From Christensenellales bacterium (GTDB taxonomy: Bacteria > Bacillota > Clostridia > Christensenellales > JBMNTT01), in NCBI GenBank assembly GCA_050945875.1, contig JBMNTT010000003.1, positions 47,133-111,132 of the forward strand: a stretch of DNA of 64,000 bases, written 5' to 3'. Position numbers and translations under genes: made by a program. Shown one piece after another: positions 7,161 through 51,870 of this stretch (positions are counted from its first letter, which is position 1; each line of letters opens with the position of its first letter). The notes beneath the pieces were generated by a model. It worked only from the letters and a program-made list of their open reading frames with translations, had not been told where the DNA came from and made no database searches.

Positions 7161-8006
7161 TCACAACACACACACATCGATCCCCCGCTGGATGAAGGGG
7201 CCTTGATAGACCTGTACATCCCGGGCAGTGTCAAAGTCCGGCCGGTAGTCGAGGCCCACCATGGCGTATTTGGCCCCAGCGGTGCGGTGGTAGGGCAGCA
7301 GCTCCACCCGCTGGAGGCGTCTCGCTCCCTTTAGACGCTCGGCCAGGGGCTCCAAATGCGCCAGGTTGTCGTTGATCCCCGGAATCAGAGGCACCCGGAT
7401 GACAAAGGGCGTATTGCCCCGGCACAGGCACTCCAAGTGCCGCAGGATCGGCGCGTTGTCCACCCCCGTGTAGCGCCGGTGCAGCGCAGGGTCGATGAGC
7501 TTGACATCCATCATGACCAGGTCCACCGTGTCCATCATCTCGGCGAAAGCTGCGTCCGGGCAGTAACCCGAGGTCTCGATGGCGGTGTGCAGCCCGTCCA
7601 GGCAGGCGATGGCCGCTCGGACCCCCTCCCACTGTCCCATGGGCTCCCCGCCGGAGAAGGTCACGCCTCCACCGCTGGCGCACAGCAGATCCTCCCCGCG
7701 CAACAGTTCCCGCGCTAAGTCCTCAGCCGCCCAGGCCGTGCCGGCGATGCGGCGCAGCCCCTGGGGACAGGCCGACACGCAGGCCCCACAGGCGATGCAG
7801 GAATCGTGGGTGCAGACCTGCCGACAGCGGCCGCAGTGGGTGCAGGCGCTGGGGCTGACCATCAACTGCGGGGCGAAGGACAACCCCTCGGGGTTGTGGC
7901 ACCACTGGCAGCGCAGGGGGCAGCCCTTGAGGAACACCGTGGTGCGGATGCCCGGCCCATCGAACAGCGCAAACTCCTTGATATCGAACACCAGCAGCTT
8001 GGCCAT
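7161..8006 (-). CDS. glycyl-radical enzyme activating enzyme (radical SAM, with ferredoxin-like Cys-rich insert)
   Basis: The sequence MAKLLVFDIKEFALFDGPGIRTTVFLKGCPLRCQWCHNPEG carries the CX3CX2C motif, followed by CTHCGRCRQVC...CIACGACVSACP. The gene starts 12 nt downstream of the GRE gene. Confidence 0.9.
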   Translation of the reverse strand: MAKLLVFDIKEFALFDGPGIRTTVFLKGCPLRCQWCHNPEGLSFAPQLMVSPSACTHCGRCRQVCTHDSCIACGACVSACPQGLRRIAGTAWAAEDLARELLRGEDLLCASGGGVTFSGGEPMGQWEGVRAAIACLDGLHTAIETSGYCPDAAFAEMMDTVDLVMMDVKLIDPALHRRYTGVDNAPILRHLECLCRGNTPFVIRVPLIPGINDNLAHLEPLAERLKGARRLQRVELLPYHRTAGAKYAMVGLDYRPDFDTARDVQVYQGPFIQRGIDVCVL

Positions 8007-8018
8007 ATCACTACCCCC

Positions 8019-10085
8019 TTACGCCAGATTGAGCTCCGCCCGGGCGATGATATGATCCTGATAATCCTTGTCCAGCTCGACGAAATAGCCGCTCCACCCC
8101 CACACCCGCACAATCAGGTTGCGATGGTTCTCCGGATGCTGCTGAGCGTCGAGCAGGCGGTCGCGATTGACGGTGTTGAGCTGCAGCTGGTGGCCGCCCA
8201 GGGCAATGAAATACTGTACCAGGGCGGCTACTTTGGCGATGGCCTCCTCCCCCCGAAACACCGAGTCGTGGAACTCCAGCGTCAGCGGTCCGCCGTTGAT
8301 GGTCTTGCCCAGGTCGGCTTTGGTGAAGGAGCGCATCACCGACACCGGGCCCTTCAAGCGGGTGTGCAGGCTGGGGGCATAGTTGGCCGGCAGTGGGTCC
8401 TGAGCGCAGCGACCGTCGGCGGTGGCCCCGGTCTGGCGGGCATGCCACAGGTAGAACATCGCCGAGCCCGTGCCTGCGCGGTAGACGCCCCCGCGCTCGT
8501 TGCGCCGCCCGGCCAGGCACTGGGCGAAGGTCTCCAGCAGCCACACCGCATACCCGTCGGGGCTGGGCTCGTCGTTGCCCATCTTCGGGCATTCATAGCG
8601 CAGATACTGCATCAGCGCCTCCTGGCCGGCAAAGTTCTCGGCCACCGCGCCGGTCAGCTGTACGCCGGTGACCTTGCCCTCGGTGAAGACCGCCCGCTCC
8701 ATGGCCGCCAGGGAATCCGCCGCCGTGGCCAGGCCGGTTCCGTGCAGGCCGTAGTTGTTGTATCGGCTGCCCAGGCTGATATCGCGGGCGCGCGCCACGC
8801 AGCCCTCGAAGAGCAGGCTCATGAATGGCGAGGGGACGATATAGAGGTCGGCGAAGGAGGCCGTCAGCGCATCGACCTGGCGATCCACCGCGCGGCGCGC
8901 CGCCTCAAGCACCGGGCCCATGTCCGCCGCGCCAGGCAGGGCCTCGCGCATGGCCGCGTCCACCGCCCCGGCGAAGCTGACCGCGCCGATGTTGGGGATG
9001 TCCATGCCCACGCCGGGGATGATGAACTCCCAGCAGGCGGCCACCACATAGTCCCGCGCGTCCTCCAGGGCATAACCCAGCTTCACCAGCGCGGGGATGA
9101 CCACGTCGTCGTTGGCGTACTGGGGAAAGCCCAGGCCTAGCTTGGTCAGCTGGGTGCCCAACTCGTAAACCGCCAGAGGCGTCCGGGCGCTGACCCGCAG
9201 GTTGATCTTCGGGTCGATCAGGCGCAACTCCCCGCAGGCCTCAAGGCACATGCGCGAGAGCGGGTTGAAGGCTTCCTCCCCCCGGCGGTTCACGCCGCCG
9301 AGCACCACGCTCTGGCCGTTATCGCCCTGCTGGATACCGGGGTAGAGGTCGCTGTCTCGGTTGCAGGCCAGGAAGAACTCCTCCAGCAGCTCCATCGCCT
9401 GTTCCTCGTTCAGCCGGCCCGCAGCCAGGTCCGCCTCAAGGTAGGGCCAAAGCAACTGGTCCAGCCGGCCCAGGGTGTTGTGGTAGTTGCCCTCGCACCA
9501 CAGGGCGTAATGGATGAACCGCAGCGACTGCAGGGCGTCAGCAAAGGTGCGTGCGCCCTGGGCGGGCACCCGCTCCAGCCGCCGGGCGATCTCCTCCCGC
9601 CCCTCGGCCCGAGCCTGGGCGGCATAGCGGGCCGCCAGGTTCAGCACCGCGCGGGTGCTCTGAGCCATGGCGGCCAGATAGTCGGCCTGGGGCTGTTGAT
9701 CGGCCTGGAGATAGCGCGCCCGGGCGGTCTCCACCTCCCTCAGCCGGGCAGTTAGCCCTCTGGCGATGGTGGTGCCGTAGTCCGGGGAGATATTGCAGAC
9801 CACGCCGTTCTCATGGATAAAATGTTCCCTACGGATATCTTCCCAGGCGGCCTCATCATAGATACTGGGCAGGTTGGGCACCGTGCGGGTCAGCACGATG
9901 CGCTCCTCGGGCAGCAGCACCGGCTGCTCCAGCTCCAGAGCCAGGCGGAAGCGCTGGGCGGTGCGCCAGTAATCCGGCAGGTTCCCGACGCGGTAAGGCC
10001 AATCCCCTTCGGGCAGGGACTGGCGGTGAACATGATGCTGCTTTTCGAGCAGACGCTGGCGCATGCGGGCAATCCGATCGGTCAT
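8019..10085 (-). CDS. glycyl-radical enzyme, PFL2/1,2-eliminase-like, unusually short (688 aa), substrate unknown
   Basis: The C-terminus carries NLIVRVWGWSGYFVELDKDYQDHIIARAE (glycine-radical motif). A Cys loop (EDARDYVVAACWEFIIPG) aligns to EDARDYGIIGCVEP of B12-independent glycerol dehydratase. The ATG overlaps the upstream stop codon (ATGA) and is preceded by a GGAGGG RBS. Confidence 0.85.
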   Translation of the reverse strand: MTDRIARMRQRLLEKQHHVHRQSLPEGDWPYRVGNLPDYWRTAQRFRLALELEQPVLLPEERIVLTRTVPNLPSIYDEAAWEDIRREHFIHENGVVCNISPDYGTTIARGLTARLREVETARARYLQADQQPQADYLAAMAQSTRAVLNLAARYAAQARAEGREEIARRLERVPAQGARTFADALQSLRFIHYALWCEGNYHNTLGRLDQLLWPYLEADLAAGRLNEEQAMELLEEFFLACNRDSDLYPGIQQGDNGQSVVLGGVNRRGEEAFNPLSRMCLEACGELRLIDPKINLRVSARTPLAVYELGTQLTKLGLGFPQYANDDVVIPALVKLGYALEDARDYVVAACWEFIIPGVGMDIPNIGAVSFAGAVDAAMREALPGAADMGPVLEAARRAVDRQVDALTASFADLYIVPSPFMSLLFEGCVARARDISLGSRYNNYGLHGTGLATAADSLAAMERAVFTEGKVTGVQLTGAVAENFAGQEALMQYLRYECPKMGNDEPSPDGYAVWLLETFAQCLAGRRNERGGVYRAGTGSAMFYLWHARQTGATADGRCAQDPLPANYAPSLHTRLKGPVSVMRSFTKADLGKTINGGPLTLEFHDSVFRGEEAIAKVAALVQYFIALGGHQLQLNTVNRDRLLDAQQHPENHRNLIVRVWGWSGYFVELDKDYQDHIIARAELNLA

Positions 10086-11575
10086 GTGCGTTCCCTCCTG
10101 ATGACAATGGCCGCCACGCTGGCAGCAGGCAGGTCAATCACGTCCCCGCCGGTGAAGGTTTGGGTCACCTGCTGCGGACAGACGCGATCGGGGTACTCGA
10201 ACGTGTTGTGGTCATGGGGATCGCCGGTGAGCAGGGTCAGCGTTCCATCTCCCTGCAGGGAACCGCCGAAGGCCGACAGCTGTACCTGCATCCCCTGGTC
10301 AAACTGGGTGTTGGCCAAAGTGATGGTCACCAGATTCTCTCGCTGGGAGGCCGAGACCGATAGGTTGGGCAGCCCCTCCGGCCCTCGGCAGGCGGCATCG
10401 GTGGCTACGGCGATCTGCCGCGCGCCCTGGTGCGTCTTGAACAAATCAAAAATATGGTAGGTCGGCGTCAGGATCAGATGCTCCCCGCCCGCCAGGAACA
10501 GGCAGTGCAGATTGTTGCACAGTTGGGCAACATTGGCCATACGCACCACATCGCACCGGTTGTTGAAGATATTCAGCGTCAGGGCCGAGACCATAGCGTC
10601 GCGCAAGGTGCTCTGCTGTTCAAAGAGGTTGTAGCCCTTGGATGGGCCGGAGCCATCGGGATGCCAGCAACCCCACTCATCCACCACCAGCCCGATTCGC
10701 CGCTCCGGGTCATAGGCGTCCATAGCCGCCCGATGGGCATCGATCAATCCCTGCATGCGAAAAGCCTGATAGAGCTGTTGATCCCACTGATCGGCGGTGA
10801 ACCCGGTCACATCGCCTGCGGCGCCGCAGTAGTAGTGCAGGCTCAGGCCCCAGAGCTCGGCATTGCGCCCAAAGTGGATGTTGCCATACTCCCGCATGAA
10901 ACCCTGGGTCCAGGCCAGATCGTCGGCGTTAGGGCCGCAGGCGATGAAGCGGTATCTCCCCTCGTCCAGATCATTGACCACCGTGGCGTAGCGGATGAAC
11001 TCCCGGGCGTACATCTCGGGGCTCATCTGCCCGCCCCCACCCTAGTTTTCATTGCCGATGCCCCAGTAGCGCACGCCAAAGGGTTCGGGATCGCCATTGC
11101 GCTCCCGCTCCCGGGCCAAGGTGGTGCTGCCTCGGGGGAAGTTGCAGTACTCAACCCAATTGCGGATGTGCAGGGCGGGCACGGTGGTCACATTGGCCGC
11201 CACATAAGGTTCAGCTCCTGTCATGCGGCAAAAATCCATAAACTCATGGGTGCCCACCTGGTTGGATTCGGTGCGTCCGTCCCGACAGTACCACCAGTTG
11301 ACTCGGGTTGGCCGGTCAGCCTCTGGGCCGATGCCGTCGCGCCAGTCGTAGGTTTCGGCAAAGCAGCCGCCCGGCCAGCGCAGCACCGGCGGCTCGATGC
11401 GCCGAAAAGCCTCCACCAGCGCCTTGCGAAAGCCCCGCACGTTCTCCACCGGGGAATCCTCGCCCACGTACAGCCCGTCGTAGAACACCCCGCCGATGTG
11501 TTCGGCAAAATGCCCGTATATATCCCGGGCAATTTCGCCCCGGGACTGGGGAAAGAGCAGACAGACCTGCGGCAT
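10082..11575 (-). pseudogene. abfA: GH51 alpha-L-arabinofuranosidase interrupted by one in-frame TAG (codon at 11042..11044)
   Basis: ORFs 11042..11599 and 10082..11026 are in the same frame. The junction reads ...YWGIGNEN*GGGGQMSPEMYA... The acid/base GNE motif is in the N-terminal fragment and the nucleophile LVVDEWGCW is in the C-terminal fragment. The likely start is MPQVCLLFPQ (11575), which has a GGAGGGG RBS. Confidence 0.8.
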
Positions 11576-11602
11576 ATGCACCCCTCCATATTCCAACATG
11601 AT

Positions 11603-11616
11603 CGTTCATGTGAACG
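11603..11616. promoter_or_regulatory. candidate LacI-family operator (CGTTCA-TG-TGAACG inverted repeat)
   Basis: These are perfect 6-bp arms located between the predicted abfA -10 hexamer and the abfA start codon. The repeat overlaps a TGTGAACGTTTAAC stretch resembling LacI/CcpA-type half sites. Confidence 0.45.
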
Positions 11617-11625
11617 TTTAACCTC

Positions 11626-11654
11626 ACGATAGCATGGGATTCCCACGCTGTCAA
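11626..11654 (-). promoter_or_regulatory. promoter of the abfA-GRE-activase operon (TTGACA-17-TATCGT)
   Basis: Hexamers were read on the minus strand, and the operator lies just downstream. Confidence 0.5.
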
Positions 11655-11663
11655 GGGGGCGCC

Positions 11664-11693
11664 TTGACCAGTCGGTTTTGGTCATGCTAGAAT
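11664..11693 (+). promoter_or_regulatory. promoter of the lacI-family regulator gene (TTGACC-18-TAGAAT)
   Basis: Hexamers were read on the plus strand. The -35 is back-to-back with the abfA -35, forming the palindrome GTCAAGG-GGGCG-CCTTGAC. Confidence 0.45.
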
Positions 11694-11726: not shown

Positions 11727-12746
11727 ATGGCTGGCGAGCGGGTCACGCTCAAGGATATCGCCCAGGCCGCGGGATGTAGCATCAACACTGTGTCCCGGGC
11801 GCTGAAGGATATGCCGGACATCGCGCCGGCCACCCGGGCCCGCATCCAGCATCTGGCCAGGCAGATGGGCTATCTGCAAAATCATTTAGCCTCCGCTCTG
11901 CGCTCGGGTTCCTCCCACACCATCGCCGTGGTGCTCGGCGATGTGTCCAATCCCCATTTTTCCCTGATAGTTCAGGATATTGAGCGTTTTTTCCGGGGCA
12001 AGGGGTACACGGTGCTGATCATCTGCACCCACGAGGACCTTGCCCTGGAGCGGGAGGCTTTGGGCGCGGCGCTCTCGCGCCAGGTGGACGGCATCGCGCT
12101 GTGTCCCTGCCAGATCGATCGGAGCAGCGTGGCGATGCTCGAGCGCAGCGGAGTGCCCTTCGTGCTGATCGGACGGCATTTTTCCGATCCGGCACTCAAC
12201 AGCGTCCATGTGGACGACACCCTGGGCGGTTATCTGGCCACACGGCATCTGCTCGATCTGGGCCACCGGCGCATCCTGCACCTGATGGGCCCAGAGAACG
12301 TCAGCTCCGGCGCGGAGCGACGGGATGGCTATCTGCAGGCGCTGGCCGAAGCAGGCATCACGCCGCAGGCGCATCTGATGGTCGAGGTGCCCGGGCTGAA
12401 CCTGGAGGCGGTGGCCAGCTGCCTGGACGCAGCGGGCGTCCCAGGGGTGGATTATACCGCGCTGTTCGCCTTCAGCGACGCGGTGGCCTGGGGCGCGCTC
12501 AACGCCCTGCGCACCCGACATATCCACATTCCCCGGGACCTGTCGGTGATCGGGTTCGACCATATCGCCCAGGGCTGGGGCTTCATGAGGCCCATCGCCA
12601 CCGTTGCCGGCGGCGAGTGCATGGCTATCCAGGCCGCCGCCCTGCTGCTCAGCCATATTCAGAACCGTGACCAGCCGCCTCGGCAGATCGTGCTGCCGCC
12701 GACGCTGGTACCCGGCCCCACCACCGCCCCGCCGGCGGCGGGGTAA
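11727..12746 (+). CDS. LacI family transcriptional regulator
   Basis: An N-terminal HTH (VTLKDIAQAAGCSINTVSRALKD) is followed by a periplasmic-binding-protein-like sugar-binding domain. The gene is divergent from the abfA operon. Confidence 0.9.
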   Translation: MAGERVTLKDIAQAAGCSINTVSRALKDMPDIAPATRARIQHLARQMGYLQNHLASALRSGSSHTIAVVLGDVSNPHFSLIVQDIERFFRGKGYTVLIICTHEDLALEREALGAALSRQVDGIALCPCQIDRSSVAMLERSGVPFVLIGRHFSDPALNSVHVDDTLGGYLATRHLLDLGHRRILHLMGPENVSSGAERRDGYLQALAEAGITPQAHLMVEVPGLNLEAVASCLDAAGVPGVDYTALFAFSDAVAWGALNALRTRHIHIPRDLSVIGFDHIAQGWGFMRPIATVAGGECMAIQAAALLLSHIQNRDQPPRQIVLPPTLVPGPTTAPPAAG

Positions 12747-12832
12747 AACCCGGCGCGCGCCCAGACGATAGATATCCCTGTATTGACAAATCCTCCCCTT
12801 GCGGCTATCCTGATAATGCACAGAAGAATACC

Positions 12833-12980
12833 GGATCTTATCCAGAGAGGCGGAGGGACTTGGCCCGATGAAGCCTCGGCAACCATCCGCAAGGAACTGG
12901 TGCCCCTTCCAGCAAGCCCCGGCTTGGCAGATAAGAGCAGCGCGATCCCCATGCCTCCCCTGCCAGCGGGAGGTTTTTTT
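12833..12980 (+). ncRNA. SAM-I (S-box) riboswitch with terminator
   Basis: The sequence UCUUAUCCAGAGAGGCGGAGGGACUUGGCCCGAUGAAGCCUCGGCAACC...GGUGCCCCUUCCAGCAAG...CAGAUAAGA matches the S-box core and its P1 pairing. The terminator CCUCCC-(8 nt)-GGGAGG plus U7 lies at 12954..12980. Confidence 0.85.
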
Positions 12981-13023
12981 GCTGTCCAAGCGCATCCGGA
13001 AAAAAGGTGAGGGAGCGTTTACG

Positions 13024-14337
13024 ATGAAAAAAGGTCATTTCTGGGCGCTGCTGCCCATCCTGGTGTTTCTGGTGCTGTTCATCGGCTCAGGGGTCATCAC
13101 CGGGGATTTTTACGCCATGCCCGCAGCGGTGGGTTTCCTGATCGCGCTGATCGTCGCGTTTTTGATGAACCCCAAAGAAAAGTTCTCCAAAAAGCTGGAG
13201 ATCATGGCCCGGGGCGCTGGGGATGAGAACATCATGATTATGTGCCTGATCTTCATCCTCGCCGGGGCTTTCTCCGGCGCGGTGAAGGCGGCCGGCGGCG
13301 CGGAGAGCACGGTCAACTTCGGCCTGTCCATCCTGCCCAGCAACATCGCCGTGGTCGGTCTGTTCCTGATCGGTTGCTTTATCTCCACCTCCATGGGCAC
13401 CTCGGTGGGCACCATCGTGGCCCTGTCGCCCATCGCCGTGGGCATCAGCCAGAAGGCGGGCATCGCCATGCCCATTTGCCTGGGTGCGGTGGTGTGCGGC
13501 GCGATGTTCGGGGACAACCTGTCCATGATCTCCGATACCACCATCGCCGCGGTGCGCACCCAGGGCGGCGACATGAAGGACAAGTTCAGGGAGAACTTCA
13601 AGATCGTGCTGCCCGCGGCGATTATCACCCTGGTCATTTTTCTCATCATCACCCGCAACGCCGCCTACAAAATCGACGAGCCCCTGCCCTATGATTTCAT
13701 GCGCATCGTGCCCTATCTGGTGGTGCTCGTCGGCGCGCTGGTCGGGCTGAATGTCATCCTGGTGTTGGTTAGCGGCACGGTGCTGTCACTGATTGTCGGG
13801 TTATGCTACGGGGACTTTACGTTCATGGAAATCTTCGGCGTGATTGGCTCCGGTATGGAGTCCATGTTTGAGATCACCGTCATCTCCATCCTGGTGGGCG
13901 GCGTGGTGGCGCTGATCAAGCACAACGGCGGCATCGACTGGATCCTCAACATCATTCGCAGTCATATCAAGAGCAAGAAGGGGGCTCAAGTGGGCATCGC
14001 CGCGCTGTCCGGGCTTGTGGATGTGTCCACCGCCAACAACACCGTGGCCATCGTCATCGCCGGTCCCATCGCCAAGGAGATCAGCGACGAGTTCAACATC
14101 ACGCCCCGACGCACCGCCTCGCTGCTGGATATCTTTACCTCGGTGTTCCAGGGGTTGATCCCCTACGGCGCGCAGATGTTGGCGGCGGCTGAGGCGGGAG
14201 CGCTCTCCCCGATCGCCATCATCCCCTACTGCTTCTATCCGGTGCTGATGGGCATCAGCGCCCTGGTCTTCATCCTGCTCGGTATCGGCGACCGGGCCAA
14301 GAAGCCCAAAGCCGCAACCCCGGCGTCGGAATCGTGA
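13024..14337 (+). CDS. NhaC-family transporter, MetT-like (putative methionine transporter)
   Basis: This polytopic membrane protein starts at MKKGHFWALLPILVF (with an RBS containing GGTGAGGGAG). The part of ORF 12868.. upstream of 13024 runs through the riboswitch and is not coding. The S-box association suggests a role in methionine uptake. Confidence 0.75.
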   Translation: MKKGHFWALLPILVFLVLFIGSGVITGDFYAMPAAVGFLIALIVAFLMNPKEKFSKKLEIMARGAGDENIMIMCLIFILAGAFSGAVKAAGGAESTVNFGLSILPSNIAVVGLFLIGCFISTSMGTSVGTIVALSPIAVGISQKAGIAMPICLGAVVCGAMFGDNLSMISDTTIAAVRTQGGDMKDKFRENFKIVLPAAIITLVIFLIITRNAAYKIDEPLPYDFMRIVPYLVVLVGALVGLNVILVLVSGTVLSLIVGLCYGDFTFMEIFGVIGSGMESMFEITVISILVGGVVALIKHNGGIDWILNIIRSHIKSKKGAQVGIAALSGLVDVSTANNTVAIVIAGPIAKEISDEFNITPRRTASLLDIFTSVFQGLIPYGAQMLAAAEAGALSPIAIIPYCFYPVLMGISALVFILLGIGDRAKKPKAATPASES

Positions 14338-51526: not shown

Positions 51527-51870
51527 CAGATGAGGCGGGCCTATAAGCCGAGTTCTGTCGAGAGTGGCCATCTATCTAGGCCGACGGTTGCCAGTCGGCT
51601 CCAGCGATTACACGGGACGTGACGGGCCGCCACATGTGTCCCGATATCAATCTTGCACCAGGTGGGGTTTACAGAGCGGACAAGTCGCCAAGCCGCTGGT
51701 GAGCTCTTACCTCGCCTTTCCATCCTTACGGCGCAAGCGCCGCGGTTTCTTTCTGTTGCACTTTCCTTGGAGTCGCCTCCACTGGGAGTTACCCAGCACC
51801 CTGCCCTATGGAGCTCGGACTTTCCTCGTCCCCTCGCGGGGCCGCGGCCACTCAGCCCGCTCATCCTGTC
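51527..51870 (-). ncRNA. rnpB: RNase P RNA (bacterial; the core resembles the type A architecture)
   Basis: The minus strand contains GAGGAAAGUCCGAGCUCCAUAGGGCAGGGUGCUGGGUAAC...GUGCAACAGAAAG...GGUAAGAGCUCACCAGC...GUAAACCCCACCUGGUGCAAG...CCUAGAUAGAUGG...ACAGAACUCGGCUUAUAG. P1 pairs GGAUGAGCGGGC with GCCCGCCUCAUC. The ends are accurate to about 5 nt. Confidence 0.92.

Follow-up and report, generated by a model that had tools for sequence, protein, structure and literature searches.

A widespread family of short glycyl-radical enzymes in arabinose-linked operons and its possible C-O bond chemistry on L-arabinose

Introduction

Glycyl-radical enzymes (GREs) carry out chemically hard anaerobic reactions, and the newly assigned families (CutC, HypD, IslA and YbiW/PflD) have each exposed a new microbiome pathway. 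Here we ask what such an enzyme may be doing in a 64,000-nucleotide stretch of a Christensenellales genome (assembly GCA_050945875.1, contig JBMNTT010000003.1, positions 47,133 to 111,132; hereafter the window), where a GRE gene and the gene of its activase follow a gene for a glycoside hydrolase family 51 (GH51) alpha-L-arabinofuranosidase, with a LacI-family regulator gene divergent from the three. Judged by its sequence, the window GRE is a member of a distinct, uncharacterised subfamily of pyruvate formate-lyase (PFL)-like GREs with a remodelled active site, and the presence of such a GRE, in many anaerobes, beside genes for the release and import of arabinose suggests an undescribed anaerobic sugar-breakdown step. 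We moderately favour the reading that this is a subfamily of the Cys-x-Glu (CXE) type that would act on L-arabinose or a close derivative by breaking a C-O bond; as part of that reading, we hold it somewhat probable that the GRE and its activase, in their LacI-controlled operon, form a working two-protein radical system.

A short GRE with both radical motifs in place

The window GRE matches the Pfam domains PF02901 (E 4.7e-97) and PF01228 (E 7.7e-20); its C-terminus reads NLIVRVWGWSGYFVELDKDYQDHIIARAE and the stretch around its Cys loop reads EDARDYVVAACWEFIIPG. A first-pass annotation of this DNA had recognised a glycine-radical motif at the C-terminus, which is confirmed by the Pfam Gly_radical match and by alignment to solved GREs, and had put forward a residue-for-residue match of the Cys loop to that of glycerol dehydratase (GDH), with which the HMMER alignment to GDH (1r8w) agrees. 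In this alignment, ledardyvvaaCwEfiipg of the GRE is set against LEDARDYGIIGCVEPQKPG and livrvwGwsgyf against LIVRVAGYSAQF, pairing EDARDYVVAAC351WE353 with EDARDYGIIGC433VE435 and RVWG663WSGYF with RVAGYSAQF. The profile of the family described below yields the same motif alignment in CutC, PflD, propanediol dehydratase (PD) and the Streptococcus PflD (8id0), and by sequence the Gly and Cys motifs of the window GRE align with those of ~30 solved GREs.

An AlphaFold (AF2) model of the GRE built from 121 sequences (predicted local distance difference test, pLDDT, 90.5; predicted template-modelling score, pTM, 0.92) replaced an earlier one built from 23 sequences, whose C-terminus was weak and whose Gly loop had a pLDDT <50. 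In the 121-sequence model, a hairpin of strands 347-348 and 354-355 carries Cys351 at its tip, and a beta-hairpin (strands 658-661/664-667) between helices 641-649 and 673-684 carries Gly663 at its own; such a helix-hairpin-helix and hairpin-tip layout has been described for GREs in general (PMC13450708). Foldseek matched the model with a probability of 1.00 and template-modelling (TM) scores of 0.83-0.87 to ~50 GRE chains, among them glycerol and propanediol dehydratases, CutC, PflD, YbiW, HypD and HplG, at 22-26% identity. Structural alignment of the two motifs had been set beforehand as a check, and its outcome was positive, both motifs sitting at predicted hairpin tips and aligning with solved GREs.

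At 688 aa the protein is shorter than its solved relatives (765-850 aa), and the loss is mostly N-terminal, in keeping with the first estimate of a deficit of ~100 aa in the N-terminal part. The alignment to GDH is weak over profile positions 2-68 (GDH 10-77) and picks up again at position 95 versus GDH 161; ~83 GDH residues are replaced by ~26. Of the ~100 residues lost, ~57 belong to the N-terminal helical region, opposite GDH 78-160.

The activase, in turn, carries the cluster motifs C29x3C33x2C36, C55x2Cx2Cx3C65 and C70x2Cx2Cx3C80 and passes the TIGR02494 cut-off of 174.35 with a score of 265.7, bearing out the description of a CX3CX2C motif accompanied by two ferredoxin-like Cys clusters.

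Placement among characterised GREs

Placement by profile was likewise a check fixed in advance, and it put the window GRE outside every characterised isofunctional family tested with NCBIfam. Every equivalog model scored 3- to 15-fold under its cut-off (score/cut-off: HypD 295/1100, HpfG 264/1000, PflD-type NF007437 251/1109, CutC 243/1050, HpsG 238/1000 and PFL TIGR01255 64.8/994.2), and the PFL2-3 subfamily model gave 333/678. With the family profile, CutC, PflD, GDH, PD and HypD all score alike (306-336 bits), so that the family stands at the same distance from each. PflB belongs to the same superfamily and has the same Pfam domains, but is very distant (PDB E 6e-21); PFL has an adjacent catalytic Cys-Cys pair, whereas the window GRE has a single catalytic Cys with a Glu at +2.

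CutC and HypD are of the CXE type like the window GRE, and CutC is the top profile match (336 bits; TM 0.83-0.87), yet the identity is 22-25% and the GRE has no choline- or proline-related neighbours. To our knowledge, YbiW and PflD are the only characterised sugar-acting GREs, and both need a phosphorylated anhydro-sugar. These enzymes (8id7, 8yjo, 8id0) also have the CXE loop in common with the window GRE, PflD being the second-best profile match (326 bits); they act on 1,5-anhydroglucitol-6-phosphate and 1,5-anhydromannitol-6-phosphate, and their reaction is a cleavage of the ring C-O bond following H abstraction at the carbinol carbon (PMC13450708). By analogy, this reaction type is a plausible model for the window GRE, although identity is ~25% and the YbiW/PflD substrates are phosphorylated, whereas here the partners are importers of the major facilitator superfamily (MFS) or the ATP-binding cassette (ABC) type and arabinofuranosidases.

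With GDH of Clostridium butyricum (1r8w) and PD of Roseburia inulinivorans (5i2g) the window GRE shares the fold (TM 0.87), the aligned Cys-x-Glu and RVxG loops and an adjoining activase with two ferredoxin-like clusters. It is, however, 24-26% identical to them and ~100 aa shorter, its Cys loop reads AACWE where that of GDH reads GCVEP, and its family is flanked by sugar genes and, unlike the two dehydratases, by no diol-pathway or microcompartment genes. Within the active site, where Ser282 and Asp447 of GDH bind the substrate, GDH His164 is altered to Asn98, His281-Ser282 to His202-Asn203 and Asp447 to Asn365, and the GDH Tyr339 loop is replaced by QQGDNGQS in the GRE family; for His164 of GDH a role as general acid has been described (PMC13450708).

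The Cys and the Glu two residues later are thus conserved, as first claimed, but the further step of taking them as the hallmark of the 1,2-eliminases did not survive, since the isomerases YbiW, PflD and HplG carry C-x-E too. The motif is common to both groups and alone does not indicate an eliminase; its role has been described for eliminases and isomerases alike (PMC13450708).

The characterised GREs listed in a review of June 2026 are PFL, TdcE and class III ribonucleotide reductase; the decarboxylases HPAD, PAD, IAD and AAD; the X-succinate synthases; the C-O eliminases GDH, PD, HpfG, HypD, HpyG and HpzG; the C-N/C-S eliminases CutC, IslA/IseG and HpsG; and the isomerases HplG, YbiW and PflD (PMC13450708). 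Among the GREs in that review (PMC13450708) there is no protein of ~680 aa, no CWE loop and no link to an arabinofuranosidase, in agreement with the earlier remark that a characterised GRE locus embedded in an arabinofuranosidase operon is not known. A description of the family was also not found in the full-text literature on glycyl radicals together with arabinose, pentose or polysaccharide topics, subscription journals lying mostly outside the scope of that search.

Distribution and conservation of the family

Scanning one genome per species for the motifs QQGDNGQS and Y[VA][VM]AACWE, we found relatives in at least 585 species genomes, belonging to Bacillota, Bacteroidota, Verrucomicrobia (including an Akkermansia metagenome-assembled genome, MAG), Planctomycetes, Lentisphaerae, Kiritimatiellia and Spirochaetes; among the carriers are the cultured Hungatella hathewayi DSM 13479 and Acetatifactor aquisgranensis. 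A word-indexed search returned >120 clusters at ~60% identity, all of 670-692 aa and mostly from Clostridia, Christensenellales and Oscillospiraceae MAGs. Where homologues bear a database name, it is 'pyruvate formate-lyase' or 'formate C-acetyltransferase', a label contradicted by the score and motif evidence.

Across 77 full-length members (49-63% identical, 666-717 aa), C351-W-E353, R660-V-W-G663-W, N98, H202, N203 and QQGDNGQS are invariant (77/77), and of the 161 positions with a conservation of at least 95% among 76 relatives, the window GRE retains 160. The idea of a second catalytic Cys, as in a radical epimerase or a PFL-like enzyme, was discarded: the residue in question, Cys197 in WCEG, had seemed invariant in a comparison of close relatives but is Cys in 49 of the 77 members only.

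An exhaustive search of a library of cluster representatives at 50% identity placed the core family within a wider set of GREs of 680-745 aa that are 34-38% identical (representatives P0157, P0159, P0162, P0168 and P0174-P0176) and that may, by their motifs, constitute a larger uncharacterised clade of short GREs. Like the family, these proteins are short, have a GD[NT]GQ motif and carry C-[W/Y]-E, i.e., Trp or Tyr after the catalytic Cys; unlike it, they have the Gly loop RVWGFSAYF in place of RVWGW and do not have the full QQGDNGQS. Two further proteins, P0147 (41% identical) and P0161 (34%), have lost the catalytic Cys (AAGSCF and SSRGEP, respectively), and in P0161 the radical Gly is gone as well (RLWSSGVPF); both may be pseudo-enzymes or decayed genes. 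A 191-aa fragment, P0213, is 99% identical to the window GRE.

Gene neighbourhoods in relatives

We compared the surroundings of the GRE gene in 80 fetched loci, with a flank of up to 10 kb. An L-arabinose enzyme (GH51, GH127 or araA/araD) lies within 10 kb in 27 of them, a monosaccharide transporter, usually in the GRE operon, in 52, and an arabinose enzyme or a sugar transporter in 56, from several phyla. Conservation of the neighbourhood was the remaining check set beforehand, and with these genes flanking the GRE in 56/80 loci the arrangement is not unique to the source genome.

The recurrent neighbours are given in Table 1. Overall, GH51-like genes account for 23 locus hits, of which 21 share the strand of the GRE and 22 lie no more than 3.7 kb from it, and the window's order of GH51, GRE and activase occurs again in L004, L005, L015, L016, L092 and L096. 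In the closest relatives (L001 and L002), an araD-araB-araA cluster is divergent from the GRE and activase genes, araA lying ~170 bp from the GRE. When metagenomes were searched in reverse, starting from the GH51 motif, a GRE adjoined on four of the seven contigs with enough flank, and an annotated contig of a close relative has the order MFS - GRE - activase.

Table 1. Recurrent neighbours of the GRE among the 80 fetched loci (raw counts)
Neighbour	Loci	Strand and distance
MFS sugar porter	19	each on GRE strand; 14 at 160 bp or less
Ribose/arabinose/xylose-type ABC ATPase	18	14 on GRE strand; 43 bp to 9.3 kb
CUT1 ABC permeases	11-16	
GH51, window type	13	11 on GRE strand; 12 within 3.7 kb
GH51-like with extra 3-keto-disaccharide-hydrolase-like domain	10	each on GRE strand, at most 3.6 kb away
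GH127 beta-L-arabinofuranosidase	10 (plus GH127-like in L023, L078)	6 on GRE strand; 1.5-8.2 kb
Aldose 1-epimerase (mutarotase)	6	5 on GRE strand; 37 bp to 5.5 kb
LacI homologue, 42-46% identical	11	9 on GRE strand; none farther than 3.8 kb
GntR-PBP regulator	7	each divergent, at most 3.4 kb away

The activase was found within the fetched flank in 69 of the 80 loci, usually adjoining the GRE. In seven loci, namely L053 (a Bacteroides thetaiotaomicron MAG), L055, L058, L063, L064, L076 and L080, it is absent from that flank, which reaches up to 10 kb and is shorter at contig ends; the GRE there must thus rely on an activase encoded elsewhere. In two loci, from Kiritimatiellia and Lentisphaerae (L037, 12183-14138, and L043, 12179-14122), the GRE and the activase are separated by a 650-aa protein whose N-terminal domain is CarboxypepD_reg-like and whose remaining part has no Pfam match.

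Other lineage-specific neighbours were also seen. Directly after the GRE, three Paludibacter/Prolixibacteraceae loci (L034, L036 and L038) have a 160-aa acid phosphatase of the MDP-1 type (PF12689), which hints at a phosphorylated intermediate in that lineage. In L078 a Zn-dependent polyol/alcohol dehydrogenase (12107-13174) adjoins the GRE and activase and is followed by a GH127-like gene; the dehydrogenase, also near the GRE in L048, could reduce or oxidise the substrate or product of the GRE.

Organisation of the window operon and its interrupted GH51 gene

The features of the locus are collected in Table 2. The ATG of the GRE overlaps the TGA stop codon of the GH51 gene (ATGA), the GRE has a ribosome-binding site of its own, GGAGGG, 7 nt upstream of its start, and 12 nt separate its TAA from the ATG of the activase; all of these had been noted at first reading and can be read directly in the DNA. 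The LacI-family protein has an N-terminal helix-turn-helix domain (PF00356) and sugar-binding domains (PF00532, PF13377). Both promoter-like sites lie back to back in the 150-nt divergent region, the minus-strand one having 10 of 12 matches and a TG extension, and between its -10 box and the GH51 start are two palindromes that are a candidate LacI operator. Of the earlier proposal of a divergent LacI with a palindromic operator, the divergent regulator stands and the palindromes are present, but their conservation in other LacI-bearing loci was not found.

Table 2. Coordinates of features in the window
Feature	Position	Strand	Remarks
GRE activase gene	7161..8006	minus	281 aa; radical SAM; TIGR02494, Pfam Radical_SAM, Fer4_12, Fer4
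GRE gene	8019..10085	minus	688 aa; Pfam PFL-like and Gly_radical domains
Gly663 codon (R660-V-W-G-W-S)	8097..8099	minus	predicted glycyl radical site; aligned to the Gly of GDH RVAGYS
Cys-loop codons C351-W352-E353	9027..9035	minus	aligned to GDH C433-V-E435
GH51-type alpha-L-arabinofuranosidase gene	10082..11575	minus	Pfam ASD1_dom and Alpha-L-AF_C; in-frame stop
In-frame TAG at conserved Trp codon of GIGNEN-W-GGGGQM	11042..11044	minus	within GH51 frame
Overlapping short palindromes ACATGATCGTTCATGT and CGTTCATGTGAACG	11596..11618		candidate LacI operator
Promoter-like site of GH51-GRE-activase operon	11626..11654	minus	TTGACA-17-TATCGT; consensus match only
lacI promoter-like site	11664..11693	plus	TTGACC-18-TAGAAT; consensus match
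LacI-family regulator gene, divergent	11727..12746	plus	339 aa; Pfam LacI, Peripla_BP_1/3
S-adenosylmethionine (SAM; S-box) riboswitch	12835..12937	plus	RF00162, 86 bits
NhaC-family transporter gene	13021..14337	plus	start probable
RNase P RNA, bacterial class A	51528..51863	minus	RF00010, 271 bits

An in-frame TAG splits the GH51 frame into ORFs (open reading frames) of 185 and 314 aa. At this codon TGG stands in 7/7 GRE-linked orthologues and in 13/13 metagenomic matches, the latter obtained with a degenerate pattern that permitted any base at the second position of the codon. The remaining gene looks intact: it has the domains PF22848 and PF06964 with partial matches to NCBIfam ArfA, its translation holds the catalytic motifs GNE (GIGNEN) and DEWG (VVDEWG), whose Glu residues we take to be the GH51 acid/base and nucleophile, respectively, and a signal peptide is absent. 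Most simply, the TAG would be a nonsense mutation by a single G-to-A change, or else an error of sequencing or assembly. Recoding of the TAG as a sense codon, or its suppression, was considered and rejected: the codon is TGG in all relatives examined, other genes gave no sign of recurrent in-frame TAGs, and no tRNA genes were found in the window. With ribosomes halted ~960 nt before the overlap, translational coupling is inoperative in the sequence as given, and the first-pass claim that the GRE is translationally coupled to GH51 had to be abandoned.

Beyond lacI, the SAM riboswitch lies directly upstream of the NhaC-family transporter gene. The listed ORF, from 12868, takes in the riboswitch; the gene probably starts at the Met of MKKGHFW at ~13021, and its product is probably a SAM-regulated methionine transporter. 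This protein was dismissed as the importer of the operon: it stands behind a SAM riboswitch and was never found with the GRE in the other loci examined. Housekeeping genes flank the region (MurC, NagB-like, CNNM/CorC, polysaccharide deacetylase and IMP dehydrogenase).

Discussion

How might a GRE act on a sugar here? The activase would split SAM at its CX3CX2C cluster to give a 5'-deoxyadenosyl radical, which would take an H atom from Gly663, and the stored glycyl radical would generate a thiyl radical on Cys351; the relay from activase radical to Gly to Cys-loop thiyl is the established mechanism of the superfamily (PMC13450708). From the conserved C-x-E we would expect the thiyl radical to take an H atom from a substrate carbon that bears a hydroxyl, Glu353 to deprotonate that hydroxyl, the neighbouring C-O bond to break with loss of water or opening of the sugar ring, and Cys351 to give the H atom back, leaving a deoxy-keto or deoxy-aldehyde product. 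Judged from gene neighbourhoods only, the substrate would be an unphosphorylated cytoplasmic monosaccharide, most probably L-arabinose or a close derivative, which in the relatives may be supplied by intracellular GH51, GH127 and melibiase-like glycosidases or enter through MFS porters or ribose-type (CUT2) ABC import. Dehydration, a ring-opening isomerisation analogous to that of YbiW and action on a pentitol are options that we do not rank; in a dehydration, for example, H abstraction at C1 and loss of the 2-OH would give a 2-deoxy-pentonolactone. A more specific version, in which the family acts directly on free L-arabinose, possibly the furanose released by GH51/GH127, and cleaves the C-O bond by dehydration or ring opening, we put forward only tentatively; dehydration would then yield a deoxy-pentonolactone or a deoxy-ketopentose.

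Several observations weigh against C-O cleavage in L-arabinose. The residues with which GDH handles its substrate are changed, so the chemistry may differ from that of the known CXE enzymes. In L001 and L002 the GRE has araABD as neighbours, which argues that it supplements, and does not simply replace, the classical pathway. Among the 80 loci no aldolase, kinase or dehydrogenase consistently stands beside the GRE, and 24, many on short contigs, lack arabinose enzymes and sugar transporters alike. ORF calling in the fetched loci was crude, with ORFs clustered and recurrent clusters named using Pfam and NCBIfam, and the neighbour counts are uncorrected for the frequency of GH51/GH127 near random genes. 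In the window itself, no sugar transporter adjoining the operon was found, and the GH51 partner is interrupted by a stop codon.

Against this background, the substrate could be another carbohydrate, either an unhydrolysed arabinoside or oligosaccharide undergoing radical cleavage of its glycosidic C-O bond, or galactofuranose or xylose sharing the transporters. The transporter matches are indeed generic (XylE-like; RbsA/AraG/XylG/YtfR-like) and all under equivalog cut-offs, a 520-aa MFS transporter (Pfam MFS_1/ATG22, without an NCBIfam match) pairs with the GRE in some close relatives, and melibiase-like and GH130 genes are also nearby; however, the commonest glycosidases, GH51 and GH127, together with araABD, have L-arabinose as their common denominator, and we consider another carbohydrate unlikely. 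A ring-opening isomerase of the YbiW/PflD type ('anhydroglycolysis') working on a phosphorylated or anhydro derivative of a pentose, and not on free arabinose, would fit the rank of PflD (8yjo) among the top matches (326 bits, TM 0.85), the CXE motif common to these isomerases, the FGGY kinases in a few loci and the MDP-1-type phosphatase that follows the GRE in three Bacteroidota loci. We nonetheless regard it as quite unlikely, with an identity of only ~25%, an NF007437 score of 251 versus 1109, phosphotransferase system components and aldolases absent among the recurrent neighbours, kinases adjoining in at most 6/80 loci, and transporters of the MFS and ABC types, through which sugars enter unphosphorylated.

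A dehydratase of small polyols or diols (glycerol, 1,2-propanediol, ethylene glycol or a pentitol, e.g. L-arabinitol) that handles a by-product of pentose fermentation appears improbable to us to much the same degree. The best single PDB matches are GDH (E 1e-73) and PD, and a Zn-dependent polyol/alcohol dehydrogenase stands beside the GRE in L078 and near it in L048, but every dehydratase equivalog was missed, GDH His164, Ser282, Asp447 and the Tyr339 loop are all replaced, neither a microcompartment shell nor an aldehyde dehydrogenase nor a 1,3-propanediol dehydrogenase was seen among the recurrent neighbours, and the tight operonic tie to sugar porters would be unexpected for a diol enzyme. 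The public annotation of the homologues as PFL (formate C-acetyltransferase) has their names and the Pfam PFL-like domain in its favour, and is nevertheless barely credible given the TIGR01255 score of 64.8 versus 994.2, the distance of E. coli PFL in the PDB search (E 6e-21 versus 1e-73 for GDH) and the single Cys followed by Trp-Glu (AACWE), without the Cys-Cys pair of PFL. Of another kind is the possibility, compatible with all of the family-level readings, that the operon is decaying and non-functional in its source genome, as might be gathered from a premature TAG in its first gene at a codon that is TGG in 20/20 relatives examined, and from a window without an adjoining sugar transporter. 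Since the GRE and activase frames are intact, 160/161 conserved positions are kept in the GRE, which also has its own GGAGGG ribosome-binding site, and the lone G-to-A difference could have arisen in sequencing or assembly, we give decay little credence.

We retain C-O cleavage in L-arabinose or a close derivative as the reading that we favour for the family. A GRE family that spans several phyla and sits in operons with arabinofuranosidases, arabinose genes and transporters points to radical chemistry in the fermentation of plant fibre (arabinan, arabinoxylan and arabinogalactan) in guts and rumens. If the enzyme does act on the free pentose, this would be a new, oxygen-sensitive catabolic route for plant pentoses in at least 585 species of at least seven phyla, with gut Bacteroidota, Lachnospiraceae, Christensenellales and Akkermansia-like Verrucomicrobia as carriers. 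The family is moreover a tractable target: the operon is small, Hungatella hathewayi DSM 13479 is an example of a cultured carrier, and candidate substrates are few. Specialists in GREs expect unknown clades; this one is nonetheless well-defined and widespread, and its study could bring to light a radical reaction of a pentose that is abundant in the diet.

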